This document shows positions 33,701-60,948 of a stretch of 64,000 bases of DNA, in pieces. Source of the DNA: Bilabrum cf. latius. Taxonomy: Eukaryota. The position numbers were made by a program, and so were the translations under genes. The first letter of the stretch is position 1. The number at the start of each line of letters is the position of its first letter. The notes beneath the pieces were generated by a model that was not told the DNA's origin, did no database searches, and was given only the letters and a program-made list of their open reading frames with translations. The stretch lies in the NCBI GenBank assembly GCA_965178125.1, contig OZ237746.1, forward strand, positions 186,001-250,000. The letters are read 5' to 3'.

Positions 33701-36700
33701 TGACGATGCAGTTGGTCTGGAGCACCACCCAGACGACGACGAGCAGGAGCAGAATTAGGGGGGGCGTGAGAGGCATGATGGGTCGGGTGAATCCCGTGAT
33801 CGGGCTGGGAGCAACGTGCCAAGCCAGGGGCAGCGGCATCAGAGACCAGCGCGCGGGCGCATGCAGCACGAGCACCGCGACGTCATCGCTGCCCCTGCAC
33901 CCACCGACCAGTCTCTCAGCGTTTCCATGGCAAGCGGTGACATGCATCACCTGGATGCGCACGGGATCGCACACTTCCAGCTGACTGCCAGCGGGTCTCA
34001 GGAGCTGCCCTTGGGCGCGCATGATGGCTCGCATCAGGACGGGAGGCACCATGCGAGGCAGCCTGAAGCTCAGTCCGGCTCCAGACAAAGGCCTCAGCTG
34101 TCACAGTTGAGGGTGGATAGCAACGCTTCGCCGACGATGCACGGGTCTAGCGGGCTCCTCGCAGTGCCCCCCATCACTCCGACCACGCGATCAGGCGATG
34201 CACGCCGCAAGGAGTCAGCAGATAGCAGGCCACACACCGATGGATAGGAGTCCCGCCTGGATGGGGAGCGTATCTAGCAGTAGAATAACGCTGGTCCTGC
34301 CATCGTGCCACCTGCGAGGCCTACTGCATTCTCGAATGGATCCGGGGCTGCTGCCCAGCTGAGCGCCATGGTTGGCGGCACGGTGCTGGGCGCTTTGGGC
34401 GAAAGAGCAGGACCATACCAGAGACAGTAGAGGCCCATGAGTGCGGGCGAGAGGGGTGAGAGTGGCCTTGGAAGGGGGAGGGGGAGGGGCAGGAGCACCA
34501 CCCGCAGGCCAGTGCAAGGCATGGGCCAGGCCAGCATCCCCCACCGTGGTAGTGGGGCTCCCTAGGGCGTGATGGGTGGTAGGTCGGATTCTGTAGGCAG
34601 CAATAGTCGCTCCCTGAGTGGTGTATCCCACCCACCTCGCGATGGAACCGATGGACCCGGGCAAGGGCTCAGTGACGGCTCCTCTAGCCAGTTGCCTCAA
34701 GCCGGGCGGGGTATGCAGCAACAGGGTCGGGCTGATGAGCATAGCAGCAGCAAGTGGCACCAGGAGTCTTCGGCGCAATCGCGATAGCCTCCACCCCAGC
34801 CCAATGAGGACGGGGGCTACGTCTCCTCGGTGCAGCAGGGTCCTCGTGACGGTGGCACCGGGTCCTCGTCAGGGGCGTCAGGAACTGTGCCAACAGGGCA
34901 GCATTAGTCGGACAGCAGCTAGTCGGCCCATGGTTTGCAGGGATCGATGCCCAGTCTTGGGGCCGGTCTGGCCCGAATGCATGCTGCTACAATGAGCGGG
35001 AGCGTTCTTGGGCAAGTTCCCGTCCCCACACCGACCCTCACACCCGGAGGTGTGGGCTTTGGCACACAGCCGCAGTATGGCCTTGATGGTGGTGGGCCGA
35101 TGGTGGGCACCTCTGGCACGAGCGGAATGATGCTGCAGTCCACTGGCGGTTCCTTGCAGCTGCCCCCGCCGCAGTACCATGTTGGACAGCAACTGCAGTA
35201 GCAGCCTGTACCGCAGCACCAGCTGCAGCTGCAACAGATGCAATTGCAGCAGCAGCAGCAGCAGCAGCAGATGATGCCCCGGTCGTTCAGCAACTGGGAT
35301 CCGGCACTCGCTGACGGGGCCCCACGGTACCCTCACTCGTCACACCATGGCGGCTCCCACCCGGCCTCTACTCGTTCCAAGGGCTCCAAGGGGTCTCGAG
35401 GGTCGAGGGGCTCCCGGGGATGCAGGGGATCGGGCATCACCAAGAAGCTGGTTAAGATGAGACAGAGGCTGTCCGATGAGCTGGCTGCCAAGCATCAGAC
35501 CGAGCATGCTCCAAACACTGTTGGCGAAGTGATCCCGTTGTCCCCTTCCTCGGCTGGCACGGGGCCCGACCATTCGGATTACATGCGGCGCGGTGAAAGC
35601 AGGCGACACTCCAAGGGGTCCATGGATGGCAGCCTGAGCACAAGCAAGGAGAGCAGTCGCACCAGCAGCAAAGACAGTAGAGTCTCAGATGGCATGCAAA
35701 CCGGCGAGGGTAAACGGAAGCGCCTGAGACGGCGCGGAAGCAGGGGCAAGAGGCGAGGGCGGGACAATGATGCGTCAACGGAGGCTCCGTCTCCCGTGTC
35801 CGCTGACGGGAGAGGTCATGAGGGCGGTTCCCATCGTTGGCAGCTGGATGCAGAGCAGACGCACCAGCAGCTGCAATAGCAGCAGCAGCATCTCGGTACC
35901 GGGTCCGTTGCACGAGGCAACTTGAAGAGCGACAGTTCGGACGCAGCCGAGACCGTCCGCAAGGCATCCAGCGAGTCGCCAACCAGCCCAAGTGCCGTGC
36001 AAACCGGGGGCACGCAGCTGCAGCATGAATACTCTACAGCACAGTCCAGGCCGGCAGCTCTCCAGGTGACATCGCACGGCTATGCCGCTCCAGCGATCTA
36101 CAGTCGGCGGTCCCAATCACCCTCCGTGCAGGCTGATGGCGCCGCTAACAAGCAACAGAGAGGTAGAGTGCAGCTGCGGCACGATGTGGCTAGTCCTGGG
36201 GCGGCTTCGCGGTCACCATCCCCCGGTGAAGCGAGCCCAGTCATTGACAAGCAACCGAGTCAGGCTGCCACCCCGCACAAGCCTGGCACAGGCACTCGCG
36301 CGCTGGTGCCGGCGCTTGACCTCAGCTCGGCGGTTTCCAAGCCCCCGCGCCACCCCAAAGAACAGTCGGACGTGGAACACCTCTCAGACAGTTCTGACTC
36401 CGACAGCGACTCATCTAGGGGACTCAGCTCTGGCTCTGATTCCGACCGGCTCGAATCGAGCAGGAGTGGCAGCGGGAGCGGGAGCAGGGAGCAGTCTGCC
36501 AGCAGAAGGCGGGGCTCTGCTAGCTCGACTGGCAAGTCGGACTCGAGGCGGCAGTCGGATCACTCCATACCTGCGCGAGCCAGCAAGAGCGGGAACTCAA
36601 CTGGTATCTCTGCAGCTGCGACGGATGCCTCCGGTGGTGACGGTAACGGCGACAGTGCTGCGCCAGTCTCACAAGGCCAACAAGACGAGGGCGCCGGAGA

Positions 36701-39700: not shown

Positions 39701-39809
39701 TGAATAGCCTCCGCATTCCTATTCCCATGGAGGGCAAACTGGGTTCAGCTTCCAGTCCCCGTAGCAGCAGATGCAGCAGTCCGTTCGCCAGCAGCAGCAG
39801 CAGCAATAT

Positions 39810-39845
<36 letters not shown>

Positions 39846-42800
39846 TATCACCAGCAGCAGCAGCAGCAACCCCTCTACGCCCCGCCCCCTCCCTCCCTAC
39901 AGGAGGCCACCGACGAGGAGGGATCAGAGGAGGACGGCAACCGCAGCGGGGACGATGAAGATGCGGTGGACGAGGTCAGGCTGATCGTGGGTCCGCAAGG
40001 CGAGCTCAGGCCTTCAAGGGGCAGGGGCAGGCGCAGGCAAGGCAAGGAAGTAGGTGCCATGTCCGGCAGATCGGAGAGGTCTGCAGCCGTGACGAACACG
40101 AGCTCTGCCACATCAGGTCTGGAGTCGGAGCGCAGCGGTGCGGTGGGTGGCACGGGCATGATGCGAGTGGAGTCGATCATGTCTGGCGGTGACAGCCACA
40201 GCATGGCTCGCAGTGGTACAGCTAGCGGCTCGGCCACAGGCACTGGAACCGACCGCTCCGGTGACAGCCCTTTGCGACGGCGGGACAGCCGCCGCCACAG
40301 CGGAACACCTAGAGTCCTACAAGCGAGCGGTCGCAGCGCTGATGATGGCGATCGAGGCGAAGGTTCGTCAGGCTCGGACGCAGACGCCGATGAGGACACA
40401 TCCCCGTTCTAGAAGAACAGTCGGATGTCCAGGACAAGATCTGACCTGGGCATGGCTGCCGGCCGATCCGCCACCACGGCAAGCATGGGAGTGCACAGGA
40501 ATCGAATAGAGCAGGACGGGTTCTTCGAGGAGTCGGGCGATCGCCCGAGGCGGCGGAGGAGAGCGCTGGCCGGACTCGAGGCCGTGGCCGAGGTGTCTGA
40601 AGGTAGGAGCGGGTCGAGGGACGCGCCCGGAGAGGTGCCTGTGGTTTCCATGGGTACTAAGCGTGGTCCAGAAGTAGATGATGATGATGACAGTGGAGAC
40701 GACAAGGAGCAGGAGAACGCCGTCCCCCTGAGGCGCGGTGGTGGTGGAGCTGCTGCAGGCGCGTCGTTGGACTACGAGTCCCAGCTGCGGCGCGCACGGA
40801 CGTTCTCGGGTCGGATTGCGAGCGACGGGGGTCTTCTGGCCTATGTGGACGGGCAGAACGAAGGTCAGGGCCATCCATCCCCCACCAACCCCCCCATGAT
40901 ACTGCACGCGTCTGCAGATGCAGGTGGTGGCGGCGCTCTGGCTTCACCGGGTGAATCTAGCGGCATGATTGATCTGATGGAAGGCGAGGGCAGCGGTCTA
41001 TCCAGTCTAGGCATGCTTGGTGGTCTGGGTGGGATCAACGACGGCGCCATGCACGACAGTACGGGTGGTCTGGGTCTAGCCAACGAGTTTGCAACCTCCA
41101 GCGGAAGCGGCAGCCGCAGCGGCAACAGCGGTAGTGGTAGCAGGGGGGAATCCCAGCGGGAGCGCAGCCTGGCGAGCGCCGGTGCCCCATCTACGTCAGG
41201 TCCTCTGTCTCAGCTGGGGACTGCATCAGGTGGCATTTTCTCCTAGAGGACGCCAAGTGTGAGCACAGGCGACACGACCCAGAATGGGAACCGTGGAGGT
41301 TATGCGAGCCGGCAGCGGCAGCAGCGGCAGACACATGGTGGAGAGGGGAGCCAAGCTCGCGAGCACGAGGGTGACGGCAGCACGGATGATTCAGCCTTCC
41401 CACGCGGCGTGCGCAGCAGCGCCCATGGTATCGACGTCAGCGTTGACCCCAGTGTGGCTCCTTCACAGGGCAGCGGCAAGTCGCCGTCCAGCCGATCCAT
41501 GGCACTCTCACAAATGGGTCGATCGGGGCGCAGCATCGGCCTGCATGATGCCAGTAGGACAGACACTGACTCCACCTCTGGGATGGTTGCGGGCAGAGGA
41601 TCAGACGGTGAGGCGGCACAGGTACGTGGCAGCGGGTCTCGGGGATCAAACAGTGTGCCCAGCCCCCAGATAGCATCGCCTGCTGCCGGCGGCAGGCCCG
41701 GGATCAGGCCTGGGGCCGGCAACCGGGGTGGCGGAGATAGGGATGGCCAACCTACTCAGCAGCAACAGCAGCTGCAACAGCAGCAGGCAACACGTCATAG
41801 TGGTAGGCCATTACCAGGGAGTGCAAGCCACAACGCGACCGTTGGTGCTGTGATGGTGCTGCAGCCTGATTCGAACGTAGGCGCAGCGGGGCTGGCTCAC
41901 CAAGACAGCGACCCCCTTTGTCACCTCTACAGGACAGCTTCATCCGAACCATATGGGCTCGAACTCTCAGATCCGGTGGATTGCAGAACCGACCCGAAAC
42001 CACACGGAACTTTCTCGAAGCCAGCTCTGAAGTTCGGGTAGGCCCAGCCCACTGCCCCAGTGCGCGCGGTGGGGCCGTCAGCAAGACAGTGGCTGAGGCC
42101 TCGATCTGGGCAGAATACAAAGAGATCCGCACGCGAGCGGCATGGAGCGACAAGTAGCAACACCAATCCCCAGTCTGCATGCGGCGAAGCAGCCAGGCCA
42201 TCTTCACAAGACTGTGCGCGTGAGCTAGACGTGCCCCAATGCTTAGGTAGTATGGACGAGTCCTCGGCGACGTCACAATCGCTTGAAGTGGCCATTGCCT
42301 ATGAGTAGTCGGGTGCCTTGCGCCTGATCCATGGCCTTGGTGGAGCCAGGTCACGCGCATTGATAGGCGCAGATCAACCGGGCGATGCACCGGAACCGAC
42401 TTACCGCTGGATTGTGTCGTGCAGTGGCAAGGCCAGCCAGTAGAGCAAGGGCAAGGCCGGTAAGGCCCAGCCAGCTGCAGAGACTCCTGCGCAACAAGCG
42501 GCTTGTTCATCCCGCGGTGTCGCTGGCCGTGCGCCTGGTAGCGCAGGGCGAGACAGCGGCAGCGGCGATGGTGGGGATGGTGGGGACGAAGACGATCAAG
42601 AGAAGAAGGCTAGAGCTGCAAGTCAGTTGAGGGAAACAGAGAAAGGGGGTGCAGATGGTCGCTACGAAACAGAGCGTGCCTCATCTCTAGACGGGGATGG
42701 TGTCAACTCGACTGCAGACCCGGAGGCAGACGAGGAACAGGACCAGGGCCAAGACTCGAAGGCAACTTCCAGACGGCCAAGACTCGCTACACGCCTCGAC

Positions 42801-45500
42801 GCCGATGCTACAGCACCACAGGGTGGCGCGGGCCGCTGGGGCGCACCTGCCAACTTCTCCGGGCCCGACCCGTTTCCCTCTCCGTCCAGTGCCCGCTCAG
42901 GCGCGGGTGCTAGGGACGATGACTGGCAGAGGGCACTGTCTCAGTCCCAGCTGGACGCACCCAGCACCCCACCCTTCTTTGGCGGGGTGCAGCAGGGGTC
43001 ATCCAGGGAACAGAGCGGGCCTGGCCTGTCCCCCGGTCTGCTTGCGGGAATGGCCGACTCACCCTTGGCTCCCGGGGTCTCGGGGCACCATTTGCAGCAC
43101 GATCTCGGCGATGTTGGGCTCTCTGCTGGTGGGGCAGCTGGCGTGCACACTGAGCCTGGGCTGGGTGGCAGGCAAGCAGATCCCGCTTTGGGCCATGGCC
43201 TAGGCGGCTTTGGTCTCCCTCCGGGTGGCGGGGGTGGGTCGGGTGCCCGGCCCCCGGTGTTCTTGGCGCATGCAGCGCAAGCCATGGGGTGCAGCGGCAG
43301 GTCGCTGGGAGGCATATCCGTTGACTCGACGGGTGCTGCGTCAGAGGCGGGGGAGCGGGAAAGACGACTTTTGGCGCGTGCTGGCATGAGCGGTGTCAAT
43401 GCACAACAAACGCAGCAGCAGCAGTAGAAGCAGCAGCAGTAGAAGCAGCAGCGCGGCTCGCCGTCGAAGCGGGGCGACAGGAATGACCCGGAGGTTGGGT
43501 TCTCGTCACCCATGGGGATGGGGCTCTTCCGCATCACTGAGGACGAGGGCTCGCCCATTGCGAGCGAATCCACTGCTGATGGGACTGGGGGTGTTGGAGG
43601 CTTTGGGCCGGGGATGGACGCAGATCAATCCGGTGTGCACGCGGACCAGGCCGCGACGGACCTGCCCTGGGCAGGCGGTGCTCTTGCTGGGTCGGGGGGG
43701 TCGGTGCAGCTGCAGTCGACGGTCAAAGGGAGCGAATCGCAGTCGGCTGCCGGCAGGACCTCTGCCGCCTCACAGGGCCTTGCGACATCCCGTGTTTCGT
43801 TGGTCAGCGAGGCTGCCTCACCATCACCGAGCACTGGTGGTGATACTGACCAACCGGCAGCTGTGGAAGGCACCGGCGCCACTGACCCCAACACACCGTC
43901 AGACGCTGAAAAGAAGAGGAGGAGGAAGAAGAGAAGGAGGGGAGGGACACGCCGCAGAGAGGAGAACAAGCGAAAGAGAGAGGCACTCCTGGCGAAAATC
44001 ACGCTGGCGGCGGGTCTCGCGGATGGCGCGGCTCTCTCGAACCTGTCTGGGCACGGAGCTGATAGCGACGTGCAAGTGCTGACGGGTCGGTCGGCCGAGT
44101 CGGGGACGAGCTGCGGGATGGAAGGGTCTGCGCTATCGTCAGATTCGCGGTCACAGGACGGCAGCAGTCGAGCCCGCAGCCAGAGCAGGGGGCAGACCCT
44201 GCCGGATGGGACCGCGTCTGTGGTATCCCTTGAGGGCGGCATGTCCCTGGTGCTAGGAACCGAGCCAGAGGGGGGTGGCTGGAGGCAGCGCGAGGCTCGG
44301 AAGAAGCAGGAGGAAGCAGAGAGGAAGAGGAGGGAGCGAGAGCTCGGTCTGACTCCGCAGAAATCCCCCCGCAACCAGCGCAAGGGCAAGGGCAGGGGCA
44401 GGGGTGTGCACAGAGGGCCGGTGTGGGGAGGCACCGGGGCTGGTCTTGCAGGGAACAACGTAGGAGGAGTATCCCCCGACCCAGTGGGCAGCAGACATGG
44501 GTCGGTTGCGGGTGCCACCGACTCGCGTGGGTCGGGGTTTGGGCCGCCGCCCACGCGCTAGTCCAGCGGTGGATCGGTGGGGGCTGCTTTGAGTCCGCTC
44601 AAAAGACAGAAACCGCCGCCTCCTCCGCGACAGGGCCGCGCCAGCCGCTCCTCTCATGGCGGTGGGACACACTCGTCACACCACGGCGGCAGCTCCGTCG
44701 TGGACGATGCCGCCTCTGCTGCCAGCAGCGCATCAGACTGGCGACTGGGAGACAACACCGACGGGCAGAGCAGCGTAGGTAGGAGCAGCGCGTACGGCGG
44801 CAAATACAGGCCGCCGTCCGTCCGTAGCGGTGGTGGAGGAAGTGGCAGCGGTGCAGCCAGGCGTCGCCCGGGAGGCAGCCCGCCCATGTCCCCGCACTCT
44901 CCAGCGAGCCCCGGGGCTGGTGGCTGGGGGCACAGCACCGGCGGGAGGGGTGCGGGTGGTGGGGCCGTGTCTCGCGTCCCTTTCCTTGGTGCTATAGGTC
45001 GGTCCAAGACCCATGGTAAGATCATCACGTCACCTACGCGCGATTCATCCTCGCCCGCCTCGGGCGGCAGCTAGACGGCAAGGGCTAGGGCGGGTGCAGG
45101 TGGCAGTGGATCTGGTCCCGGTGGCTAGGGCCCGTCCGGTGCTGGAGGGGTCTCGGGACGGCTTGCTGGCGGGGCTGCCGCACCAGGTAGGAGGCGACGG
45201 TCCAGCGCCGGGATGCGGATGGGTTCGGGGAGCCACGCCCTGCAGCAAGCGGCGATGCGTGTCCGGTAGGAGCAAGCGGGTGGTGGCATTGGCGGTGGTG
45301 ATGGGGCTGCTGGTCTTGCTACTGGGAGGGCTGCAACGGCCGAAGATGTCGCTGGCGGCAGGGGTGGTGCCGTAGCTGCGGCGATCACCGGTGGTCGCAT
45401 GCTAAGCCCATGGGGCCGCGAGGGGTTGGGATCTGGGCCTGGTGCTGGGTTTGAGCCTCTGCCAGGGGTGGCGGAGGGGTCTCGTGAATTCATTGAATAA
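30750..45500 (+). CDS. Giant (~4,860-4,900 aa) low-complexity protein with one CCCH zinc finger
   Basis: More than 20 ORF-track fragments fall in one frame. Reading the gaps by hand shows about 47 TAG and no TAA/TGA until TAA-TGA at 45498-45503. CCCH motif 'KAMLCIHWLQSGTCPFGDSCSMAHG' at ~32031-32105. Probable in-frame intron 30804-30965. Confidence 0.85.
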
Positions 45501-45708: not shown

Positions 45709-48700
45709 TCAAGACAATCCAGGTTTCCCATCAAACTGCAGCCGAATCGGTTCGCGACTTCCTGAAACATACCTGGCTGGCAGCATCCGGCTGAACAAGA
45801 GGCAATTCAAGAGCTCCTCAACGCTCTCTGGGCACATGCCGTCCGGAACATACGTGCCGAAGCTCCCACCATGTGCGCGGACCTCCGCATTCAAGGCAAA
45901 CTCCGAGCAGTGCATCTCAGCACAGATACCACCAACCCCGAACGTCCTATCCTTCGATCTTCCAGCAGCCATCCGGGCTGCATCCACCAGCGACTGCACA
46001 AACCTGTCGGCTGCATCCGAATTGGACAGAATGCTCGAGTCAGCGACATCCGGGCCACTGCTGGAGACAGCATCGCCCCGGTCACTGCTCGGGTCAGCAG
46101 GCCCCGGGCCACTGCTGGGAACAGCATCGCCCCTGTCACTGCTCGGGTCAGCAGGCCCCGGGCCACTGCTGAAGACAGCATCGCCCCTGTCACTGCTCGG
46201 GTCAGCAGGCCCCGGGCCACTGCTGGAGACAGCATCGCCCCGGTCACTGCTCGGGTCAGCAATACCTGGGACGCTACTCTAGTCAGCGACATATTGCAGC
46301 CGAATCGGTTCGCGACTTCCTGAAACATACCTGGCTGGCAGCATCCGGCTGAACAAGAGGCAATTCAAGAGCTCCTCAACGCTCTCTGGGCACATGCCGT
46401 CCGGAACATACGTGCCGAAGCTCCCACCATGTGCGCGGACCTCCGCATTCAAGGCAAACTCCGAGCAGTGCATCTCAGCACAGATACCACCAACCCCGAA
46501 CGTCCTATCCTTCGATCTTCCAGCAGCCATCCGGGCTGCATCCACCAGCGACTGCACAAACCTGTCGGCTGCATCCGAATTGGACAGAATGCTCGAGTCA
46601 GCGACATCCGGGCCACTGCTGGAGACAGTGATATCCGGGGCAGTGTTTGAGACGGCAGCTTTTAAAGAAGAACCATGGACAGCAGGACTGCAAACTGTAC
46701 CTTGCATCGTGTACGAAATTGCTGCTGCAGTTCCATTTTCCGTCACCGAAGAAGTGCTAAATGTTCCGGACGAGCGCGCAATGTCACCGCTTGCGTGCGT
46801 CCGAACCTCCCCATACCGCTCTAAATCACTCAGAAGGGCCTCACGAGAAATGAACAGATAGCCTTCTGCGTCACCTGATATAGGTTCTAAGGTTTCAGAA
46901 TAACCCATGCCACCTGCCACAGGAGCGCCCTACTCAGCATGACCCATGCCACCGGGCACAGGAGCGCCCTACCCAGCATGACCCATGCCACCGGGCACAG
47001 GAGCGCCCTACCCAGCATGACCCATGCCACCGGGCCAAGGAACGCCCTACCCAGCATGACCCATGCCACCTGGCACAGGAGCGCCCTACCCAGCATGACC
47101 CATGCCACCCGGCCCAGGAGCGCCCTACCCAGCATGACCCATGCCACCGGGCAAAGGAGCGCCCTACCCAGCATGACCCATGCCACCTGGCCAAGGAGCG
47201 CCCTACCCAGCATGACCCATGCCATCTGGCCCAGGAGCGCCCTACCCAGCATGACCCATGCCACCTGGCCCAGGAGCGCCCTACCCAGCATGACCCATGC
47301 CACCGGGCACAGGAGCGCCCTACCCAGCATGACCCATGCCACCCGGCCCAGGAGCGCCCTACCCAGCATGACCCATGCCACCTGGCCAAGGAGCGCCCTA
47401 CCCAGCATGACCCATGCCACCGGGCAAAGGAGCGCCCTACCCAGCATGACCCATGCCACCTGCCACAGGAGCGCCCTACCCAGCATGACCCATGCCACCG
47501 GGCACAGGAGCGCCCTACCCAGCATGACCCATGCCACCGGGCAAAGGAGCGCCCTACCCAGCATGACCCATGCCACCTGGCCAAGGAACGCCCTACCCAG
47601 CATGACCCATGCCACCCGGCCCAGGAGCGCCCTACCCAGCATGACCCATGCCACCTGGCCCAGGAGCGCCCTACCCAGCATGACCCATGCCACCTGGCCC
47701 AGGAGCGCCCTACCCAGCATGACCCATGCCACCCGGCCCAGGAGCGCCCTACCCAGCATGAACCATGCCACCCGGCCCAGGAGCGCCCTACCCAGCATGA
47801 CCCATGCCACCTGGCCAAGGAGCGCCCTACCCAGCATGACCCATGCCACCTGGCCCAGGAGCGCCCTACCCAGCATGACCCATGCCACCTGGCCCAGGAG
47901 CGCCCTACCCAGCATGACCCATGCCACCTGGCCAAGGAGCGCCCTACCCAGCATGACCCATGCCACCTGGCCAAGGAGCGCCCTACCCAGCATGACCCAT
48001 GCCACCTGCCACAGGAGCGCCCTACCCAGCATGAACCATGCCACCTGGCCCAGGAGCGCCCTACCCAGCATGACCCATGCCACCTGGCCAAGGAGCGCCC
48101 TACCCAGCATGAACCATGCCATCTGGCCAAGGAGCGCCCTACCCAGCATGACCCATGCCATCTGGCCCAGGAGCGCCCTATCCAGCATGACCCATGCCAC
48201 CTGGCACAGGAGCGCCCTACCCAGCATGACCCATGCCACCTGCCACAGGAGCGCCCTACCTAGCATGACCCATGCCACCTGGCCCAGGAGCGCCCTACCC
48301 AGCATGACCCATGCCACCCGGCCAAGGAGCGCCCTACCCAGCATGACCCATGCCACCTGGCCAAGGAGCGCCCTACCCAGCATGACCCATGCCACCTGGC
48401 ACAGGAGCGCCCTACCCAGCATGACCCATGCCACCTGGCCAAGGAGCGCCCTACCCAGCATGACCCATGCCACCTGGCCAAGGAGCGCCCTACCCAGCAT
48501 GACCCATGCCACCTGGCCCAGGAGCGCCCTACCCAGCATGACCCATGCCACCTGGCCAAGGAGCGCCCTACCCAGCATGACCCATGCCACCTGGCCCAGG
48601 AGCGCCCTACCCAGCATGACCCATGCCACCTGGAAAGTTAGCATCCTTTGTGACGATTCCGTTCAAAGCGGATTCGTATTCATCTCTCGCGGCTGCCAGC

Positions 48701-51700
48701 TCCGCACGCTTTGCGGCCTCCCTCGCTTTCTTCGCGGCTGCCAGCTCTACACGCTTTGCAGCCTCCCTCGCTTTCTTCGCGGCTGCCGCTGCAGCCTCCT
48801 TCGCTATCTTCGCAGCTGCCAGCTCTGCACGCTTTGCAGCCTCCCTCGCTTTCTTCGCGGCTGCCAGCTCCGCACGCTTTGCAGCCTCCCTCGCATTCTT
48901 CGCGGCTGCCAGCTCCGCACGCTTTGCAGCCTCCCTCGCTTTCTTCGCGGCTACCAGCTCCGCACGCTTTGCAGCCTCCCTCGCTATCTTCGCAGCTGCC
49001 AGCTCCGCACGCTTTGCAGCCTCCCTCGCTTTCTTCGCGGCTGCCAGCTCCGCACGCTTTGCAGCCTTCCTCGCTTTCTTCGCGGCTGCCGCTGCAGCCT
49101 CCTTCGCTTTCTTCGCGGCTGCCAGCTCTACACGCTTTGCAGCCTCCCTCGCTTTCTTCGCGGCTGCCAGCTCCGCACGCTTTGCAGCCTCCCTCGCATT
49201 CTTCGCGGCTGCCAGCTCCGCACGCTTTGCAGCCTCCCTCGCTTTCTTCGCGGCTGCCAGCTCCGCACGCTTTGCAGCCTCCCTCGCTTTCTTCGCGGCT
49301 GCCGCTGCAGCCTCCTTCGCTTTCTTCGCGGCTGCCAGCTCCGCATGCTTTGCAGCCTCCCTCGCTTTCTTCGCGGCACCTTCCGTAATACCTTTTACCA
49401 CTTTCACAGAACGTATTGCGGCACTCGATTCCTCCGGATCCATTTCATCATCCTCCGTGCAGCCGACCGCACTGTCATCAATGTCTTCATTACTAGTACC
49501 CTAGAGTATTCTGCCACAAAGCGCTGCGCCACCATTGACGGTGCTGCTGGGGACTGAACCGCTAGCGATAGTGTCGTGCAAACGGTATCGGGGTACTAAG
49601 CCGTCATCGATGAGCCGGATTGGAAGCTGTCGAGTCCGGACTAATCCTTGCAGGACTTCTGCCAGGGTGGTTGGTTTGCATCCAACAGGAAGGAACCTAC
49701 CGAAGTTGCTGCAGGTCCTTGTGAGAACAGTGTCGGTTTGCTGTGATCTAAACAGTGTAGAGCGGGACAGAACGTCGACCTGGCTGATCTCACGAGAATT
49801 CAAGTCGGCTACCGCGTCGGCAACTGCAAGGCAGAGCCCGCGCACCACTCGTGTAGCTTCAAAGCTTGCACCATGGACTACTGAGAGGCCAAAGAGATGT
49901 TCCTGAGGAGGTCTAGATCTACCTCTTCTCACAGTCTTGCCGGTCAAGACTTTCCGGGCTTGCAGTGCTTCACGGAGACAGTCAGAGCAACTCAAATGCT
50001 CCACTGCTCCATCACCAAGGCCCTTTGCTAGTCTGTAGTAGTTTTCCAACACGATCATCGGCAGGGTGCCGGTGACAGACAGGCAGGCAAGAAGGGTGCC
50101 AACACTCTTAGGCCTGCTCCCGTTTGGCACGTAGCTGCCGAGTCTTGTCGACTGCTGGGCTATCAACCTGTTGAAGTTGATCCCTTCCGAGTCGATCTAA
50201 AGGATCTTAAGGATGCCAATGAGAGAGAAGCACCCGTCTTGTGATATCCTTGCCGCTGCCCACGCAGCACGGCACACTTTGGTCACCATATCAACTACCA
50301 CGGGCGGCACCCCGCGAGCTGGTGCAACAGGGCGCATTCTGCACTTTGGCTAGAGCAAATCAAGCTAAGCTAGCATCGCCCTCAAATTCTTTTGTTTAAT
50401 CTGTTCGCGCGCTAGTTGCTTGGCAGCCCAGCGCGATGGCAATACGTCATCAGCGTCATGCGCCAGTCCAAATGTATTCTACGAGATCACACCGTCACTG
50501 AGAAGACGCACAGGTAGCCCTTCGGCTCTGAATAAGTGCTGACAGAGCTTGTAAAGTAGGAGTCTAGAGCGTCCACGGTCGGGGATAGAGGGAACATACT
50601 GCACAAGCAGGTGCTGCAGCCGCTGCAGCTCCTCTTCAACTGAGCACTCGATATTAAGAACATCTTGAAATTTGGAACGAATCGAAAGAAACGAAAAGCT
50701 GCCCCCACCAGCCGCGTGGGCTGCCTATCGCGCTGACACCAGCAGCTTTTCCATGAACAGCCGTGCGTCTCGAAGCATGGCGAGCGAGTCCGTGGCCTCC
50801 TTGGTGCCACGCACTGCACAAGCCGTAGGGTCGCCAAGAACATTGCTAGCAGCTACCATGTGGCCCCCTTGTTGAGTAGGTGCTAGTACACTTTCCTTGA
50901 TGTCAATTTTCGCTTGATTGCCTTCTTGTCCAGCAGCTGAGCCAGCAAGTGATGCAGTCGGATCGAACACTATTTGCGACCCATCCGGTGATTGGCGTAA
51001 CGGAACACCAGGGAATGTGCAGATATGCTTGAGACACGCAAGCATTGTCGGTGGCTTGGCTGGTTCTGGCATGATGCGCTACAAGCAGCGCTCTGCGCTT
51101 ACATCTCCAATTAGCGCAGCGCATGCATGCATGGTCAAATCGCCATCGAGAGGCAAGCGCGGCGACCGCTCGCTGGCTCTGCGGGCAGCAACCAGCACGT
51201 CCCTTATAGCGCGCCACATCTCATCCGTAAGACCTGGAGGACGAGACAAGCACTGGAAATCTAGGGAAGCTAGTGGCTCGCGCTACATGCTAAGCGAAAT
51301 GCGGTCTGCAAGCGTTTCTCCACTTGACAAATTGACGTCAGAATGCTTCTGATCGCTGCAAGATGAGAAACCAGCATCGGGCTCCACATCGGCTCCAGCA
51401 CCGGATGCTGCACCTGGTCTACTCGCTGCTGCAGCAGGCGTGCTTAGGATTTCCGCGGGCCGGTAGCTAAATAGTGTGGTTGACGCTACCTCACCGCCTT
51501 CACGCACGCACAGGCCATTGGACGGAAGCCGACAGAGCCGCACAAGCAGACGAAACGTTGTCGAAGGAAGCTTCGACTCATCATTCCCGCCTAGGATGGG
51601 ACCCAAGTGGCGCCGCACAATCAGCAACACCTCACCTGGGGGGAGGCCCCAGTCCCTCTGGTATCTCCGCGCGATCGCTCCTGCATTGCACATGCCGTCG

Positions 51701-54522
51701 ACAGACTCTTTGACTGCTGTTGCGGCTGACTATACGAGCGCAGTCACAAAGTGCTCCGCTTGAGAGATTCGTTCCTTCGTTGCAGTCTGCTGAGCGGCTC
51801 GAGCCCTAGATTCGTCGGCTAGAGTCGGCTGCTACACAGTTGGTACTCGACCGTTGTTGGCCCCTCTTTCCTCGTTCCACCGGTACTCATCGAGGTGTCC
51901 GACCGCGGAGAGCTGCGGGATCGCCGCGTTGAGACTCAGAGCTTGGAGGAGCTCTGCAAAATTAGATGGTAATGTGAATCCCGCCGGTGTGTATTCGTCC
52001 AGGTGGTTGCGCAATGCCCTGAGTGCCGCAATCCAGGTTTCGCCAAACCGGCCTGCCATCGGAGGGGGACTCTGGGACAGCTCCTCTTCAAAATGCTTGG
52101 CTTCAAAATCACCGTCGCGCGACAAGGCAACGCGTCGTGCGATTGCTAGAACTCCCTCAACGAGAACCTACACATGCCTTGCAGAGTGCCTTGGGTGGTG
52201 GATCTCAGGCGTCCGTCCGTGTGTGTCAGAGCTTGCATGGAAACGAGTTTTACTGTCATGTGGCGCCTGCCCCGCTTGCTGCACTTCCATGTCGCTTCCT
52301 GACGCAGCACTCCGCTGGCTCTACGCAGCACGAAGCCTGTCATCGATGTCCTTCTCCATCTGCTGGAACTATCGATGATCAGACGCTACCAGAGCGCGCA
52401 CCTTGCACTCGTCGGCCTCTGCTGCTTCCCTGGTTGCAACGTCGATGTTTGCCTGCCAGGACGAGTGTCGGTCCAGCACGATTCGCAATCGATCATGCAG
52501 CTCATTTACCCGGCGCCCGTAGGGGAAGTACATGCCTGGAAACATCTGAACAAGGACTTCTATCAGGCGTTTTGCGATGGCGAATGCCCGGAGCGCCCTG
52601 CGAGCAGGCCAGCCTACCTCGGCGTCAGCGAGCAGGGAAACACCGCTGAGCACGCAGTCGCTGGCCAAAGTGTCGCGCAAGCCTTCGCTCCCTAGCGAAG
52701 TTTCGGTCGTACTGGGGCCATCAGCCCCGGGGCGGCCGATGCTGAGGCTGCTCTCTGTCTCGGCCGCTGAAGCAAGATCGGTGCCGGCCTCCGGTCCGAT
52801 GTCCAAGGAACTTGCAGCCCTGTGGAAAACCTGATTTCGAATGCTTAGAGCCTGCATGCACGCGGATTCAAACGCTAGTATGTCTCGCGGGGGAATCTCC
52901 CGGGCCGTTGGTGCGTCCCGCCAGCTGCCTGTACTACTTGACAAGCCGTCGCTGGCAGCAGGCACACCCGGCTCGATCACAGGTGTTTCTGACTCACAAT
53001 TTCGATCGGCAGTGCCAATACAAATGCCAGAAGTAGTCTTATTTGCACCCGATTGATCTACAGAGTGACCACCGTGGGGTACAGCGTCGTCTGTCCTGTA
53101 CTGAACCGCCTTCGCGATGCCGCCACTGGCTTCACTGGCTCGCATGCAGGCAAGTACGCTACCTGAATGATCCATGCACGTTCGGAGCAAGGCTTGTATG
53201 TCCAAATCATGTCCTTGTATTTGTGATCGGGCTCGTGCTGCCGCAACGTGAGGAGCGAGCGCCTGCTGGAGCACCTGCTCGAGCCTTGTAATGTAGTCGA
53301 AGGGAGCGAGCTCGTAAGGATGCCAGAGTGTCCACGGAACCACGCTATCGTCGGACAATAACACTTCCATCGTCAAATACCCGGTACTGGCCTTCTACGA
53401 GGTGCTCCTGCCGGAAGTTTGGGTTGGGGCTGCAAATTGGGGCGCCTGGCCTGTCGCACCGTCTGACCGTGATCCTCGGACCGCACTTGCATCTGGGCCA
53501 GTGTCACGCATCGAATTATCTGAGGGTATGTACTCCGACCCTGGAACTGATCGTATAGTACCATGGGCTTCACAATGCATGACTGCAGCTAGATCTAGAC
53601 CACACCCAGCCGCTGCACAACTGAGACCGCCGACATCATCGCATTGGGCCTAGTCTTTTGATGCGGTGTACCCGTTCGATACTTGGAATGGCACCACAGA
53701 CGCTTCTGGATCATGTTTGATGCCATGCTGTCTCAGCAGCTACTAATGCAGCCGCTCCACGTTCCTGGCAAATACTCGCCCCGACGGCGCGTGAGCCGCT
53801 AACATCCAAGCAAGGGCCCGGCAATGACACAAAAGTCCTTCTAGAGCACTCATTCTGGGGCACGTCTGCGTCGTATGCCATTCTTCGTGGACGAACTCGT
53901 CCCTCACTGCAAGTGTGGCTTCGCTCGCCTCTGCTAGGATGTTGCAAGCTTCGTTATGAAGGTCCCGCGAAAGCGTCAATTTCGAACACGGGCCATAGCT
54001 CATAATGGCCCTGACAACGGCACTCGGTGTATCCAAGCATGTCTTCAACAGGATGTACAGGTCTTCTCCACCGCACGCAGCACCATATCCCTGACGAGCC
54101 TTTCTCACGAACACAAGTAAAGTGGATCTCAGTGTGTCCTCAATCCTTGCAAAGTAGTCGAACGCCTCAAGTCTGTAGCTTGCTGTGATGACGCCGATTC
54201 TTGCTGCGCATGCCTGGCTACCACCAACTATTTCGTCGCCGCCGTCGCCCGGACTGGCACCTTCGTGGTCGCTACAACACGCACTACTTGTCTCCGGCGG
54301 CTACTTTTCATTGTGCAGATTCTCGGGCGTATGCCATTTTTTGAATGAACTATTCAGCTATTCTTGAATGAGATCAGATGGGACCCACTTGACCTAGAAG
54401 CCGTTCCTAACTTGAGGACCACGATCTCCTTCGCAGGCTGCTTGTACCGAACGCATATAGTCGAAACCACGATTCATGACCGACTGGTTCGACTGTACAG
54501 TAGCTACACTGTAGGGCTGCAT
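45709..54522 (-). CDS. Large (~2,940 aa) repeat-rich protein with two HEPN-like domains, several copies of a possible LOTUS/OST-HTH-like domain, a charged helical repeat and a Gly/Pro-rich repeat
   Basis: One frame is open from 54624 to TGA 45709 with about 65 TAG and no TAA/TGA; first ATG is 54522. R-x4-H motifs: RDEFVH (53887-53904) and RNQVFH (52822-52839). The ORF is well supported; the domain identities are inferred. Confidence 0.75.
45737..46628. repeat. 334-bp apparently identical direct duplication (45737-46070 and 46295-46628)
   Basis: The two copies read the same at an offset of 558 bp (in frame) and duplicate the C-terminal domain 'FGTYVPDGMCPESVEELLNCLL'. Confidence 0.93.
46050..46260. 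repeat. 57-bp tandem repeat, ~3.7 copies (coding, DPSSDRGDAVSSSGPGPA-like)
   Basis: The unit ccgggccactgctggagacagcatcgccccggtcactgctcgggtcagcaggcc recurs at 57-bp period. Confidence 0.9.
46903..48633. repeat. 39-bp minisatellite, ~44 copies; coding on the minus strand as [TAG]GAPxPGGMGHAG
   Basis: Unit cccagcatgacccatgccacctggcccaggagcgcccta. The array is in frame with both flanks of the 45709-54522 ORF and has one TAG per unit. Confidence 0.97.
48687..49377. repeat. 51-bp tandem repeat with shorter variants, encoding AAKKAREAAKRAELA (charged alpha-helix/coiled coil)
   Basis: Repeated ttcgcggctgccagctccgcacgctttgcagcctccctcgctttc; corresponds to ORF 48607-49443(-). Confidence 0.93.
53244..53346. 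repeat. 103-bp dispersed repeat, copy B (copy A at 56857-56959)
   Basis: One mismatch seen against copy A; encodes SVVPWTLWHPYELAPFDYITRLEQVLQQALAPHV. Confidence 0.92.
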
Positions 54523-54655
54523 GCTATTCTTTGAATAACGAAAGCTAGATTCTGTGTGGAGTGAGAAGCGGCAATCCGGAATCCGGATTGGCCCCTGCTG
54601 ATGCCTCACCCCCCCAACAAGCGATCAATCGTAGAACTTTGAATAATTCCTGTAG

Positions 54656-57230
54656 TTAACTCCTACGATCAGATGTACTCCGCTAAATGAGGGTCCGCAA
54701 CCTGGGAGACATGCGAGCACGAGCCAGCCTCCCTCCCAGCTCTCCTGCCCTTCCCAGCAGCCGGAGCGCCGCCCGCACCAGCACCTGCACCCTCAGAGCC
54801 GCCTCTCCCGTGATCATGGGGTCCAGCATCTGCAGCCGCATCAGCTCTTCGGGGCCCACTGCGCCCATCTCTCGCAGCAGCATGGCCAGGTCCAGCGCAC
54901 CTTTCCCCCACAGCTCATCCGGAGACACGGCGGGGAGTGCCAGCATAAGCAGCTCTACCGCATCGAGCCGGAATGCTGCCTAGACGCTGAGACCGCCGGG
55001 AGCCGGCTAGGGCGGAGGCATGGGCCAAACACCGGAGGGTCCCGCACCTGCAGAGCGTACAGGTGTACTTCCACCTTGTGCTTGGGCCGGGTCACCACGC
55101 CTAGCAGCACCCCCTGCCCCGCTGAGGGGTCCACCAGCAGCATTCACCACCCCTTGCGGAGTCCCAGGCACAGCCCAACCGACCGCGTCTTGCTCACTCT
55201 CATCATCATCATCCTCACTCTCATCGTCATCCTCACTCTCATCCTCGGCATCATCCGAGTCTTCCTCCGGTCTCGGATCCAGCAGGAGCCCATGGGCCGG
55301 CAACTGCCCTGGTTCACCCGCCGGTCTCAACCTGAACCGTGCCCCGAACACGCTCGAGTCCCCGTTCCACTGCAGCAGCGGCCTCTCCGCAGCGGCGTGA
55401 TCCATCCCAGGCTCTGTATCGAGCCTAGCTTCAGGACGAGGCGAGCAGAGGCAGGCACGGGCCAGCACTGCCACCCACTGCAGTGGGGTGCCCCCACGGG
55501 GCCCCTGCAGGTCCGATGCGAACCGGCCGAAATCGCCTCCGATCTTTCTCCCAAAGAGCCGCTTGTAGTTGGCACCGATCTGCGCGTGCTGCGCCCAGCC
55601 GTCCTGGCTGACGCGGATGGCCGCCACTGTCGCGTCCTGCATGGCATCCACGAACGCCCCCGAGGTTCTGGGAGCGCGAGCACTACTACTGCCTGTGGAG
55701 GATGCTGCCTGTCTGAGTACCGCCGTTGGTGCGGGGCGGATGTCGGGATTGACCGCGCCCTCGATTCTGAAGATCGCGTCTTGGTTCGTTAAGCCGCCCG
55801 CGTGCGTCAGACCGTGGCCTCCCAGCTGCCCCAGGCAGATTAACAGGTTCAGCACGTTGCTCGGGCGTTCAGTCCCAGGAGGGAGGTATGCACCGAGTCC
55901 AGACTAGGCGCGTGCAAAGGACTCCCTCACTTTGCGGCCCGTTCGGCGCCTGAAGACCTGCCCGATATCCGTGCAGGTGAATTCTGCCTTGCCCTCTGAT
56001 GCAATATCACGCACGCATTGGAGCAGGGTTCGAATGAACTCGGCAGCGGGTTGAAAATCCACAGGTGGCTACCGGAGAGATTCCGTGGGGCCTGCGGCAG
56101 GACCCGACCCAATGGCAGGACCCGACCCAATGGCAGGACCCGACCCAATGGCAGGACCCGACCCAATGGCAGGACCCGACCCAATGGCAGGACCCGACCC
56201 AATGGCAGGACCCGACCCAATGGCAGGACCCGACCCAATGGCAGGACCCGACCCAATGGTTGGATCCTCACCCTCCCAATCCTCTTCCTCCTCCTCCTCC
56301 TCCTCCTCCTCTTCCTCCTCCTCCTCATCGTCATCATCTTCATCATTGTAACCGCTGTCCGTCTGCTCGGCTCGGGCCGCCCTAAACCTCTCCATTGCTG
56401 CGTGCAGCACCACTGCCCTGTCCACCTGAGCCTCCGCCTTCACCTCCTCGCCCATCGCCTCCGTCCGCTTCGTCTTGCTCGCCATGTGGTGCCGCATCTG
56501 CTCGTGCAGCCTCCGGATGGTTCGGGCGTGTATCTCCCCCTCGGGACAGTGAGCCCCAAGAACGGACCCCAGTGCCCTGGCCCGCTGGAACGCGGCGTTC
56601 ACGCGCTCGGGTGGCCACCGCTGGAACCTGCTGACTCGATGCGCCGATCCGTTCCTGACTCGCTGCAGGTATTCGCACGCCTCTTCGATGATGCCGCGTG
56701 CATCGTCGATGATCCGATCCCTCTCGCGATTGCTCCGGCAGAGGCCGTTCAGGACGAGCGCCAGTGTGAAGGCTCTCGGGTTCGAATTAATCGTCTTCAG
56801 GAGGTAGTACAGGTCCATGCCGCTACCCTGAGAGCCGTACACCTGTCTGGCAACATCAACGTGAGGAGCGAGCGCCTGTTGGAGCACCTGCTCGAGCCTT
56901 GTAATGTAGTCGAAGGGAGCGAGCTCGTAAGGATGCCAGAGTGTCCACGGAACCACGCTGCCATCGGACACGAACTCAACCGTGGAATACGCAGGTGGGT
57001 CGTATACACCTCTTCTGAGCTGGGGTTCAGGTCGCGACTCTGACTCGGAGCTCGCACAATCTCGTGCAGGGCCGGCAGCCCCCGCTGGCTCGTGAGCTGG
57101 TGAAGAAGCAAGACGACTTTCGCCGTCCCCCGGAGCCTCTGCTGGTACACCTAAAGAGGGTCTCGAGCTGGTACTTGGGCGTGATACACTTGTGGAAACT
57201 GCTTCGTTGCTTGCTTCGCGGGCAATGTCT
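54656..57230 (-). CDS. Paralogous protein with one HEPN-like domain (RNGSAH), acidic tract, IGSGPA repeat and two possible LOTUS/OST-HTH-like domains; 5' end unresolved
   Basis: One frame runs from ~57229 through TAGs at 56069, 55904, 55007, 54980 and 54683 to TAA 54656. There is no suitable in-frame ATG, so an upstream exon (possibly from ATG 57600) is needed. It might be spliced to the downstream ORF, but I found no phase-compatible junction. Confidence 0.65.
56096..56257. repeat. 18-bp perfect tandem repeat x9 (encodes IGSGPA on the minus strand)
   Basis: ggcaggacccgacccaat repeated nine times. Confidence 0.95.
56857..56959. repeat. 103-bp dispersed repeat, copy A
   Basis: Near-identical to 53244-53346. 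Confidence 0.92.
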
Positions 57231-57681
57231 CAATCGCCCCACGGAATCGTTCTAAGTCAGCAGTTGGTGATTCACTTCGTAGCATACGAATCAAAGCATC
57301 CCTTACATTGCCTACGCTTATGGTTGATGCACCTCTCTCCATGCCCGAGCCGCGCTGGCCAGTGGCGTGAGCTACTCCGTCAAAGTGTGCACGGCCTCGA
57401 GCCTGAATGTTTTCTCCCGGGTCCACCTCGGACAATGCAGCTCTACTCATTATATCTAAGTGTCTTATGGCTATAAATCTCTTCGTGTTGCCTGGTGTGG
57501 CTAGAGTTTGCAGGTGGGAATTCACCGTGGAAATATCATTCTTGGGCGCCGCGCATTTCATGGTTCCGCCGGCGTACTTCAAGTTTGGAATATTGACCAT
57601 TTGACAAAGCAGCGATGGGCGCCGACAGAACTAGGTATTAAGTGCAGGTAATCAACACAGTGCGTATCTAGTATTAGGCAG

Positions 57682-60600
57682 ATGCTTTCATTTGGATAGT
57701 TCAGCTCGAGAGTATCTGCTACGGCCTGGCGCGATGTGCAGCAGATCAAAGTCGACACGCTTCGGCTGTCAGAATCACCAATCTTGGTCCCATGGGTATT
57801 TCAATCAAGACGGGAGTTGGAGTATGCCGGCACCGCTTGCCTTGACCTGCATTATGTGCAAGCACAATCTCGTGATGCGTATTCACTCGACATGCCGGTG
57901 TTGGGCAAGCTGCGCATATTCAACTCCAAAGGGGCGATGCTAGCATCTGACAAGAAGCGAGAACTGGGCAGCTGTGCTACTGGGGTCCTTGCGTCCATTG
58001 CAGGCAGGGAGCCGCTGAATTCCAGCGACCTGTTCCATGTGCGCGTGCTCGCGTACGTCGACCCGAAACACCACAGACATATCCACTGGCTGGCAGCCCC
58101 AGCGATATTTATTAAATTCTTTGGACTAGACATGACAGGTGCCAGGCCGCATCCACAGCCGGCCGGGAGCAAGCTCGGCCCGGTTCGCATGTCTGCGAAG
58201 ATGGCGACCGCAGTGGGCGAGCAGCTGAAGTCGAGCGCAATTACCGAAAGCAGACCACTGGCAGCGGAACACAAGCGCGATGTTGTGCTAGCAAGCTCCA
58301 CGCCGGATGGTGCAGTGGACCCGACCGGCCAAGCATCGCAGCAGCCTGAGGAAGCAATGGCCGCAGGCACCGGGCCGCCCCTTTTTTTCTGGCTCGTGGC
58401 AACCGCCAGTGGGAGCGGCGAAGCGCCTGGCTCTGGCACCCTACCCACTGGTGGCAATAATAGCGCGAGGAATGCCACTAGCACGCTCCGCTGGACCGCC
58501 TACCCGCTTTCGGATGCAGGCAAAGCAGCCAGGCATGCACTGCACGGTACTGCACTGCCCGACTCGGCCGAAGCAGAAGCGGGAGAGTCAGCCGATGCAC
58601 TCGTCAGCGCGGCATGCGCCAGAGGCCCCGGTATGCTCGGTGGAGACTCGGAATCAGATCTATCACTGAAAGCGGCTAGGCCAGGTGCAGCGTGGGCAGC
58701 CAGCGCCAGCACCAGTACCAGCGAGGCAGAGGCAGGGGCAGGGGCAGGGGCAGGGGCAGGGGCAGGGGCAGGGGCAGGGGCAGGGGCAGGGGCAGGGGCA
58801 GGGGCAGAAGCGAAGGTCCCAGGGAACACACGCGCGGGCTGCCTGGTGCTGGGCTGTCTCGACCCCAGCCCAGACCCCTCCGTGCTCGGGTGGCCCATTA
58901 GGAACGCGCTCCTGGCCCTGCAGCTGAGGTGGAGGGTGGCCAGTGCCTGCGTCGCTGCGTGCCGGCTGGATGCGGCCGGTGCACTTAGTGTCGCAGGGGT
59001 ACAGAAGAATGAAGATGAAGATGGAGAAGGGGGAGAGGCGGACGGACATGCTCTCGCTGGTGATGGCAGCGGGAGAGCTTCTGTATCGTTAGGTGTGACG
59101 AGCTCCGATGCGGATGCCGCTGGCCCAGACAGAGGCAGCGCTCGTCACACCAGAAACAGGCGCGCAGCTCGGCTGGTGAGCATGCTGTGGTAGGTGCAGC
59201 TCCCGGCGGTTTCAGAGGAGCAGCTGCTCGACCTCCGACGATGGGCAGATGCCGTGAATGGCGATGCACCGGACCAGGGAACCGGTGCGCATGCTGCTGA
59301 TCCGGCAGCCGCCGCTGCTTGCGTTGGCTCGCCGGCACGTACCGCCCCTGCCGCCGCTACCTCCAAGAGGGACTCGCCGCCGGAGAAGCTGCCCTCGTGG
59401 ATCGGAGCCACCGGCTGGGAGCAGCGGAGGGTCAAGGTGAAGGTCCCGGGGCAGCCGGGGAAGTTCCGCTACCAGTACCGCGCGGCGCCCACGGTCACCG
59501 ACCTGGGCAAAGCCCTGGACCCTGAGGCAGCGGCCGAGCAGGGGGCGCGCCTAAACCTAGAGCTCATGCGCTGGAGGTAGATGCCCGGGCTCGACACCCG
59601 CATGGTGGCAAGCACGCGGTTCCTGCTGCTCGGGGCGGGCACGCTGGGCTGCTTCGTGGCGCGGTCCCTCGTGGCGTGGGGCGCGCGGCGCCTCACATTC
59701 CTCGACAGCGGAACCGTGTCCGCCTCCAACCCCGTGCGGCAGCCCCTTTTCGAAGCCAAGGACGCTGCGGAGGGGGGGAGGCCTAAAGCGCGAGCAGCCG
59801 CCGAGGCCATACGGCGGGTGCTTCCCGCCGTGGACGCGGCCGCGATTCGGCTCCGGATCCCCATGCCGGGGCACTCCGCGGGGCCCAAGGGGGGCAGGGG
59901 CCAGCGAGAGGCGATGGGGGCCCACGGGGAGCTGCTGCGGGCGGTGCGGAACCACGACGTGGTTCTTGTTCTAACGGACACAAGGGAGAGTCGCTGGCTG
60001 CCCACGCTCATGTGCGCCGCACTGGGAAAGCCGTGCCTGAACGTGGCCCTTGGGTTCGACTCGTGCGTGGTGATACGGAGCGGGTGCAGGGGGCCGGGAG
60101 AGACTGTCGAGGTAGGTGGTGTGACGAGTGATTCCGGTGGTGTGACGAGTGGCGCTGCTTCGGCGCCGGAGCACCCTGTCGTCAGCAAACCGCTGCCTTA
60201 GCCTTCATCGTCTTCGTTTTCCTCTTCGTCTTCCTCTTCGTCGCCCCGGCTGGGGTGCTATTTCTGCCAGGACGTGGTTGCCCCCGCAGACTCCACTCAG
60301 GGTAGGACCTTGGACCAGCAGTGCACGGTGACCAGGCCCGGCCTGGCACCCATCGCATCCGCGCTGGCCGCCGAACTAGCCGTTGGGCTTCTGCACCACC
60401 CGGCGGGCTTCCGGGCACCCCATGACGAGGGCGATGGAGGCGGAGGTGGGGGCGGAAGAGGAGGCAGCGGGGGCGCCGCTCGATCGGAGTTCGGTGCGAT
60501 GCCTCACTGCGCCCGGTTCTTCCTCCGTCGGTGGCAGCCGGTGCTGGGCGGCTCCCCGGCGTTTCCCGAGTGCACGGCCTGCGGCGACAGGGTCTGCGAG

Positions 60601-60948
60601 GCGTACGGAAGGGACCCGGAATCGTTTCTTCTCTCTGCCATGGAGGACGACGGAGGCGAGCATGATGGCACTGGAAGCGGGGAGGACGGAAGCGGTGGGG
60701 GGGGAGTGGGAGGCCGCAAGGGGGACCAAGGGAGGCGGGGGGGCGGGGGGTTTTTGGAGGAGGTCAGCGGGCTGGCTGCGATGAAGAGAATAATGGACGA
60801 TGCTGCGGGCGCGGCTGGAACTGGGGCAATGGCAGCGGTAGGCGCAGGAGCAGCTGCGGCAACAAGCTCCGTGGTGCGGGCCGATTTGGCGGAGGCTGTG
60901 CCCACTGGTGGAGATCAAGGCGAGAATGATGAGTGGGAGTTGCTGTGA
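57682..60948 (+). CDS. ATG7: Ubiquitin-like modifier-activating enzyme ATG7 (~1088 aa)
   Basis: Motifs 'LGWPIRNAL', 'LNLELMRWR[TAG]MPGLD', 'LLLGAGTLGC', 'VSASNPVRQPLF', 'IPMPGH', 'DTRESRWLP', 'LGCYFCQDVVAP' and catalytic 'TLDQQCTVTRPG'. TAGs at 57697, 59191, 59578 and 60199; TGA stop. A short upstream exon from ATG 57615 is possible. Confidence 0.95.
58732..58806. repeat. Coding hexamer microsatellite (GCAGGG)n, (Ala-Gly)n insert in ATG7
   Basis: About 12.5 perfect units are visible. Confidence 0.93.

Follow-up and report, generated by a model that had tools for sequence, protein, structure and literature searches.

Two neighbouring genes, here called A and B, lie on the minus strand of the window, i.e., the whole 64,000-nt stretch of DNA that was analysed (C12:186001-250000). 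The open frame of gene A (54656..57229, minus strand) comprises 857 codons from stop to stop and ends at the TAA at 54658-54656. It encodes, in this order, a linker, a HEPN-like domain (copy A), an acidic tract, a segment specified by an 18-nt repeat, two winged-helix-like repeats and a C-terminal helical region. By eye, the latter (54659-54982, minus strand) has a SAM-like look; Pfam gave no SAM match. The open frame of gene B (45709..54624, minus strand) has 2971 codons, 65 of them TAG, and its first Met codons are at 54522, 54477 and 54456. Two HEPN-like domains (copies B and C) are encoded by gene B, together with as many as eight winged-helix-like repeats and two low-complexity tandem arrays. 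These arrays, at 46740..49502 (minus strand), are in frame; one has a 39-nt unit, repeated about 45 times, and the other a 45-nt unit. The 45-nt array (48642-49502, minus strand) reads as an Ala/Lys/Arg-rich helical repeat. An earlier note on this DNA had proposed a single three-domain locus; the three copies are indeed present, but they are spread over two minus-strand frames, with copy A separate from copies B and C.

Genetic code, gene boundaries and sequencing contigs

The setting of the window is eukaryotic, with ATG7, ERCC1, a phosphodiesterase (PDE), SelO and cytochrome c1 among the neighbouring genes. TAG is a sense codon: seven in-frame TAGs occur within one conserved frame of the RPC1 gene, and the long frames of the window end at TAA or TGA. 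The codon is rare in most genes of the window and common in gene B. Among codons placed beside Gln codons, TAG is the second most frequent (0.134), after CAG (0.195) and before CAA (0.10), the median being 0.045; thus, Gln is the likely meaning of TAG judging from codon context, and the PDE and RPC1 alignments did not fix the amino acid directly. A TAG-only reassignment in a eukaryote is of interest in itself. Read in this way, every Gln of the 39-nt array (46740-48650, minus strand) is encoded by TAG (44 of 44). Convergent with gene B runs a low-complexity frame of 4976 codons (30570-45497, plus strand); it includes 48 TAGs and encodes a single CCCH zinc finger. The earlier note had considered the domains to be hidden by the altered code. 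This holds for gene B as a whole, which splits into 66 pieces under table 11, but domains A and C contain no TAG and domain B contains two.

The likely 5′ coding start of gene A is in another frame (57230..57450, minus strand), where the ATG at 57450 is the candidate start. This is the first ATG below 57492 and is out of frame with A, while the first in-frame ATG of A, at 56818, lies after helix 1. Joining the 57450 start to the frame of A takes either an intron of 3n+2 bases, for which many GT-AG pairs could serve, or a frameshift. In the contigs spanning 56352-57492, no splice joint linking both frames was found; a codon-score scan did not locate the junction, and no likeness was found between the upstream frame and the N-terminus of the paralogue on contig C17. 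An alternative frame inside gene A (54841-55143, minus strand) also reads like protein. The cytochrome c1 gene has an apparent GT-AG intron of about 270 nt (about 15060-15330, plus strand), seen as a frame break with GT/AG edges. ATG7 (57682..60948, plus strand), which we regard as a neighbour only, is arranged head to head with gene A; the first ATGs of the two genes are about 230 nt apart (57450-57682), and they possibly have a common promoter.

Contigs from four sequencing runs match the window, with no differences among those listed; this speaks against assembly errors as the source of the frames of A and B. Runs X1 and X2 come from two studies, and we guessed them to be RNA (X1 is flagged as 'probably DNA'). 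Their contigs break off at 57492 and start again at 57612-57620, where run X4 continues; further stops of these runs are at 54768 and 54743, among the loose ends listed. These stops give a weak hint of transcript ends. Run X1 shows a single joint of doubtful status, 54846-55199, whose ends are CT..CT and one side of which is 21 letters long. The stretch 54268-54767, which run X1 leaves uncovered, was kept out of the evidence. At 53276, a loose contig end in X1 and X3 carries other sequence, by chance or from a further related gene.

The HEPN-like domains and their family

Copy A (56432..56998, minus strand) consists of a beta-hairpin followed by helices and carries R-N-x3-H at 56656-56639. Copy B (53689..54207, minus strand) has R-D-x3-H at 53904-53887, together with E-x3-R in helix 1. 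Copy C (52399..53391, minus strand) has R-N-x3-H at 52839-52822. The three R-x4-H hexamers that had been reported are thus found exactly, on the minus strand under table 15, and the two accompanying motifs, FDY-x-x-R-[LI]-E and D-[LI]-x-x-LL-[KR]-T, each occur three times on that strand and nowhere else there. Copy C had been described as having an insert; inserted sequence is present, but as two inserts of about 65 aa that flank the motif helix. The distances between motifs are conserved: FDY to D spans 33 aa in A, B and C, while D to R spans 53 aa in A and B vs 121 aa in C.

The homology claimed for the copies was confirmed with 300 shuffles for each comparison (A-B, z=36.5; A vs the N-terminal part of C, z=37.9). 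Beyond that part, C resembles A only faintly (z 3.1 for the middle block, 6.6 for the C-terminal block) and B not at all (z 0.2 and 1.0, respectively). A stretch of about 135 nt, covering the hairpin and helix 1, is about 95% identical between A and C (56990-56857 / 53380-53244). Judging from this identity, it is a recent duplication or gene conversion, and part of the A-C likeness is therefore a recent copy. In a background of 13,700 aa from ten neighbouring ORFs, R-x4-H as such occurs often, at 0.30 per 160 aa, whereas R-[NDH]-x3-H was seen just once (0.012 per 160 aa); all three domain copies have it, at corresponding positions.

Searches of the own genome, covering 48.6 Mb in 111 contigs, identified two further paralogues, on contigs C17 and C37, so that the family counts at least four genes and at least five domain copies, both lower bounds. 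The C17 paralogue (copy D) is a 566-codon frame with R-N-x4-H, in which no winged-helix-like repeats were seen. The C37 paralogue is a 1054-codon frame that has the HEPN-like domain and two repeats and is devoid of the R and H of the motif; a weak match on C37 had an E-value of 0.023. The C37 paralogue also has a small helical domain (L006:6031-6267, minus strand), with no Pfam match, which separates its HEPN-like domain from its repeats.

Outside this genome, only six close proteins were found (P0004-P0009), and the family sample amounts to nine sequences, mostly close kin. A homologue search of 1.84 billion representatives returned two matches, close kin only, and three word-indexed searches, with about 8000 candidates scored in each, returned 0, 1 and 2 matches. 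There was no family match in the viral contigs, and plasmids gave nothing beyond four matches at E 2-4. A single metagenome locus was dropped as a chance match in a bacterial contig. In the trees, no grouping other than B/P0004 and D/P0007 was resolved. In relatives, R-[ND]-x3-H persists although the residues between its ends differ (B vs P0004, A vs P0006), and R-N-x4-H is found in both the C17 paralogue and its relative P0007. Overall, R, the following polar residue and H are kept in four of the five genome copies and in three distinct relatives, with varying neighbours. In all five comparisons with relatives, the domains are more conserved than the linkers (82/71, 88/67, 89/65, 96/83 and 51/38% conserved). 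The protein family is genuine, under constraint and specific to its lineage.

The defining feature of HEPN domains is Rx4-6H closing helix 3, in which R is followed by N, D or H; E-x3-[KR], in helix 2, and inserts between helices 2 and 3 are frequent additions (PMC3710099). Rx4-6H with a polar residue after R is present in all three copies of the window, in the C17 paralogue and in P0004, P0006 and P0007, and absent from the C37 paralogue. The upstream Glu-containing helix that had been listed as a hallmark stands in part: E-x3-[KR] is complete in B and P0004, A and C have the E without K/R, and C17 and C37 have no E. Additionally, the acidic residue sits here in the first long helix, vs helix 2 in PMC3710099.

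The structural model, made for copy A only (9-row alignment, pLDDT 78.9, pTM 0.75), shows a hairpin and helices at residues 28-54, 63-72, 74-83 (an extra helix), 90-120, 130-150 and 152-188. R115 and H120 close helix 90-120, next to loop 121-129, which is the position of the motif in HEPN RNases. In the Atlas, a language-model search (recognition 2355), ten of ten family matches fell in one family or clan. All of the named look-alikes were HEPN types (Csm6-HEPN and RNase LS HEPN, 0.85-0.88), and each stayed below 0.9; the two best look-alikes, at 0.92 and 0.89, are unnamed. Using the VIA structure search with the same model, 10 of the best 50 rows were HEPN chains, at Z 6.0-7.2, such as 1wwp (Z 7.2, rmsd 3.7, 99 aligned), 2hsb (Z 7.1, rmsd 3.2, 103 aligned) and Swt1 4pqz (Z 6.3, rmsd 3.9, 123 of 136 aligned). 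Row 5yep is presumably a HEPN chain. The HEPN rows were counted by title or from PMC3710099 or PMC4614863, and one of them, 4rgp, has an rmsd of 10.3. The best row was YicC (Z 7.8), none reached Z 8, and about 15 of the best 50 were acyl-CoA-dehydrogenase-type bundles, level with or above the HEPN rows.

No HEPN match was found in Pfam, PADLOC or NCBIfam, PDB sequence searches with both the HEPN-like and the repeat alignments gave nothing significant, and a Foldseek search of the copy A model against PDB and BFVD gave no match at E<=0.001. With HHalign, for which the reference sets held 12 Swt1-type, 4 RNase LS, 16 HEPN, 12 Csm6 and 20 hemerythrin sequences, Swt1-type HEPN ranked first, with D..LL and RN..AH in register (score 16.6-17.2, E 0.06). 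This score is under the shuffle maximum of 19.5, hemerythrin reached 14.2-15.9, and none of the four HEPN reference sets rose above shuffles. An assignment to the Swt1 family is not supported, since the HHalign result is within the shuffle range and PF18731 had no own-genome match at E<=0.05. The fold check for copy A was likewise mixed: a helical bundle with HEPN chains among the best rows was predicted, but Foldseek was silent and unrelated bundles scored level or higher. In sum, the identity and conservation of the motif, its helix-3 position, the Atlas and the VIA rows point to HEPN, with no line significant alone. Because the scores are mixed, we call the domains HEPN-like and file them under no named family. 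We consider that the copies probably have the HEPN fold, and we lean, with less assurance, towards some of them being active.

Winged-helix-like repeats downstream of the HEPN-like domains

A second domain, of about 85 aa and winged-helix-like, had been overlooked in the earlier note. It occurs twice in gene A, up to eight times in gene B and twice in the C37 paralogue, and it makes up much of both the A and B proteins, downstream of the HEPN-like domains. In gene A, repeats A1 and A2 are located at 55814..56053 and 55430..55666 (minus strand), respectively. In gene B, six repeats span 49597..52182 (minus strand), at 51910-52182, 51499-51765, 50989-51231, 50491-50775, 50041-50304 and 49597-49863; three of these are linked by BLAST, and the other three were placed by eye in the alignment. 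The end of gene B holds two more (45732..46589, minus strand), nearly identical to each other, within a duplication spaced by 558 nt.

Only one of the 12 candidate repeats, A2, matched Pfam OST-HTH/LOTUS (PF12872), at E=0.055, below the cut-off, and a genome-wide profile search with PF12872 gave no match. An HHalign comparison of an 11-repeat alignment with 24 bacterial OST-HTH domains gave E=0.0013, above 30 of 30 shuffles, over 27 columns only. In the Atlas, OST-HTH, Egalitarian and eIF2D winged-helix clusters appeared at 0.76-0.86, behind unnamed matches. The repeat model (pLDDT 87.8) was cut before the wing and thus has no wing strands. In its fold search, winged-helix chains lead, with ORC/Cdc6 at Z 5.0-5.5 and no Z >5.5. 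Four LOTUS/OST-HTH chains are among the best 50 (Z 4.3-5.0); the Tejas LOTUS domain (Z 5.0, rmsd 3.3, 63 aligned) is level with ORC/Cdc6. One of the matched LOTUS/OST-HTH chains we take to be CV_0373. The repeats are probably winged helices, and these individually weak signals together favour a LOTUS-like winged helix, a type assignment that we hold by a narrow preference.

A candidate HEPN-LOTUS RNase and its alternatives

We propose, at roughly even confidence, that A and B belong to a lineage-specific family in which a diverged HEPN-type, metal-independent endoRNase is joined to an array of winged-helix, LOTUS/OST-HTH-like RNA-binding repeats, as suggested by sequence comparison and modelling. 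Targets of the repeats would be RNA, either structured or rich in G, or else an RNA helicase, and the repeats may bring the protein to RNP granules. HEPN domains are described as requiring dimers (bioRxiv 10.64898/2026.09.30.754977). Two of the present domains, from a pair of A proteins or from copies B and C of a single chain, would merge their R-x4-H motifs into one RNA-cutting site; since A is in a separate frame, an intramolecular site is possible only for B and C. The motif-less C37 paralogue could serve as a binder or regulator, i.e., a dead partner. As for MARF1, the likeliest job would be RNA surveillance, aimed at transcripts of transposons or viruses, or else the decay of mRNA.

A HEPN-derived but non-catalytic RNA-binding regulator, comparable to Roquin, Swt1-HEPN or sacsin, would clamp RNA with its repeats and recruit decay or translation factors. 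The C37 paralogue, which kept the domain and two repeats while the R and H are gone, fits such a role, as does the acidic E, which is not kept across the family. The HEPN and winged-helix ROQ domains of Roquin bind RNA (PMC4614863), and chain 4txa is in the VIA best 50. We nevertheless judge this unlikely, given that the R, polar residue and H persist in four of five genome copies and three distinct relatives while their neighbours vary. The domain might also be an unrelated up-down helical bundle, its R..H present by chance or used otherwise, and the winged helices behind it might bind DNA, as in a scaffold of the chromatin or replication type. None of the structural scores exceeds what common arrangements reach; YicC and acyl-CoA dehydrogenase lead for the bundle and ORC/Cdc6 leads for the repeat; against it, the motif type, the motif position, the Atlas features and the HEPN share of the structural matches agree, and the repeats beat shuffles against OST-HTH, so this reading is also unlikely. 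Least probable of all is a decaying duplicated locus with gene A frameshifted at its 5′ end, gene B relaxed and the working member elsewhere (C17): gene A has neither an in-frame ATG upstream of helix 1 nor a splice joint in the contigs across 56352-57492, and gene B has lower GC3 (0.55), many TAGs, expanded arrays and the inserts in C, but an 8.9-kb frame without TAA or TGA, domains better conserved than linkers in relatives, the many GT-AG pairs that could join the frames of gene A and the spliceosomal-type introns of the genome speak against decay.

The proposed HEPN-type RNases resemble known HEPN RNases (Swt1-like/Ava_2192, RnlA (RNase LS), Csm6 and HepT toxins; PMC3710099) in being helical bundles of about 130-160 aa, in the R-[ND]-x3/4-H that ends helix 3, in having inserts between helices 2 and 3, and in the occurrence of active (here predicted) and motif-less paralogues within one eukaryote lineage. 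Unlike them, the A/B family has no significant profile match, has an extra N-terminal hairpin and C-terminal helix, and is without a PIN, CARF, kinase or ATPase partner. Additionally, A and B are fused to winged-helix arrays, whereas the active eukaryotic Swt1-like copies in PMC3710099 are solos.

MARF1/Limkain-b1 has the layout that is predicted for A and B: an RNase domain at the N-terminus and, behind it, numerous LOTUS-type winged helices in tandem (PMC6217404 and PMC2848206). MARF1 cleavage needs both the NYN aspartates and the LOTUS domains (PMC6217404). The MARF1 nuclease is an Asp-based NYN domain, while that of A and B is HEPN-like; the likeness seen is one of layout, and the signals for a LOTUS identity of the repeats are weak. 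Pfam found no NYN domain in gene A, or in gene B outside the tandem arrays. Roquin also combines HEPN and winged-helix domains within one RNA-binding protein, but it has one ROQ inside a split HEPN, with RING and CCCH (PMC4614863), whereas A and B have an intact HEPN-like domain with R..H, followed by 2-8 repeats. LOTUS-fused Tiamat/NOV are likewise eukaryotic nucleases with LOTUS arrays (bioRxiv 10.64898/2026.09.30.754977 and.755639); they have a GHL ATPase and a PD-(D/E)xK DNase, neither of which was found in A or B. No HEPN-LOTUS fusion RNase was found in the literature searched, i.e., the accessible main texts, mostly from outside the subscription journals.

The joining of a HEPN-type RNase to LOTUS-like arrays, which we consider probable here, would be a new pairing of known modules. 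More tentatively, and by analogy, the family may be a MARF1-like RNA-surveillance nuclease, built independently from a bacterial-toxin-type HEPN RNase and LOTUS arrays, with an antiviral or anti-transposon role. Its forms would be a single-HEPN protein (A), a self-dimerising double-HEPN protein (B+C, whose inserts may gate the site), a solo and a catalytically dead one. Lineage-specific HEPN expansions have been tied to defence (PMC3710099), and the five copies here are a modest expansion. Standard-code gene calling fragments gene B, which may explain the near-absence of the family from databases. The candidate would be directly testable, since the domains are small, the R/H mutants are clear-cut and the motif-less paralogue offers a natural dead control. 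The defence of microbial eukaryotes against viral and transposon RNA is poorly known, and, if the proposal is true, the nuclease would have been swapped on a LOTUS scaffold, among NYN, PD-(D/E)xK and HEPN.
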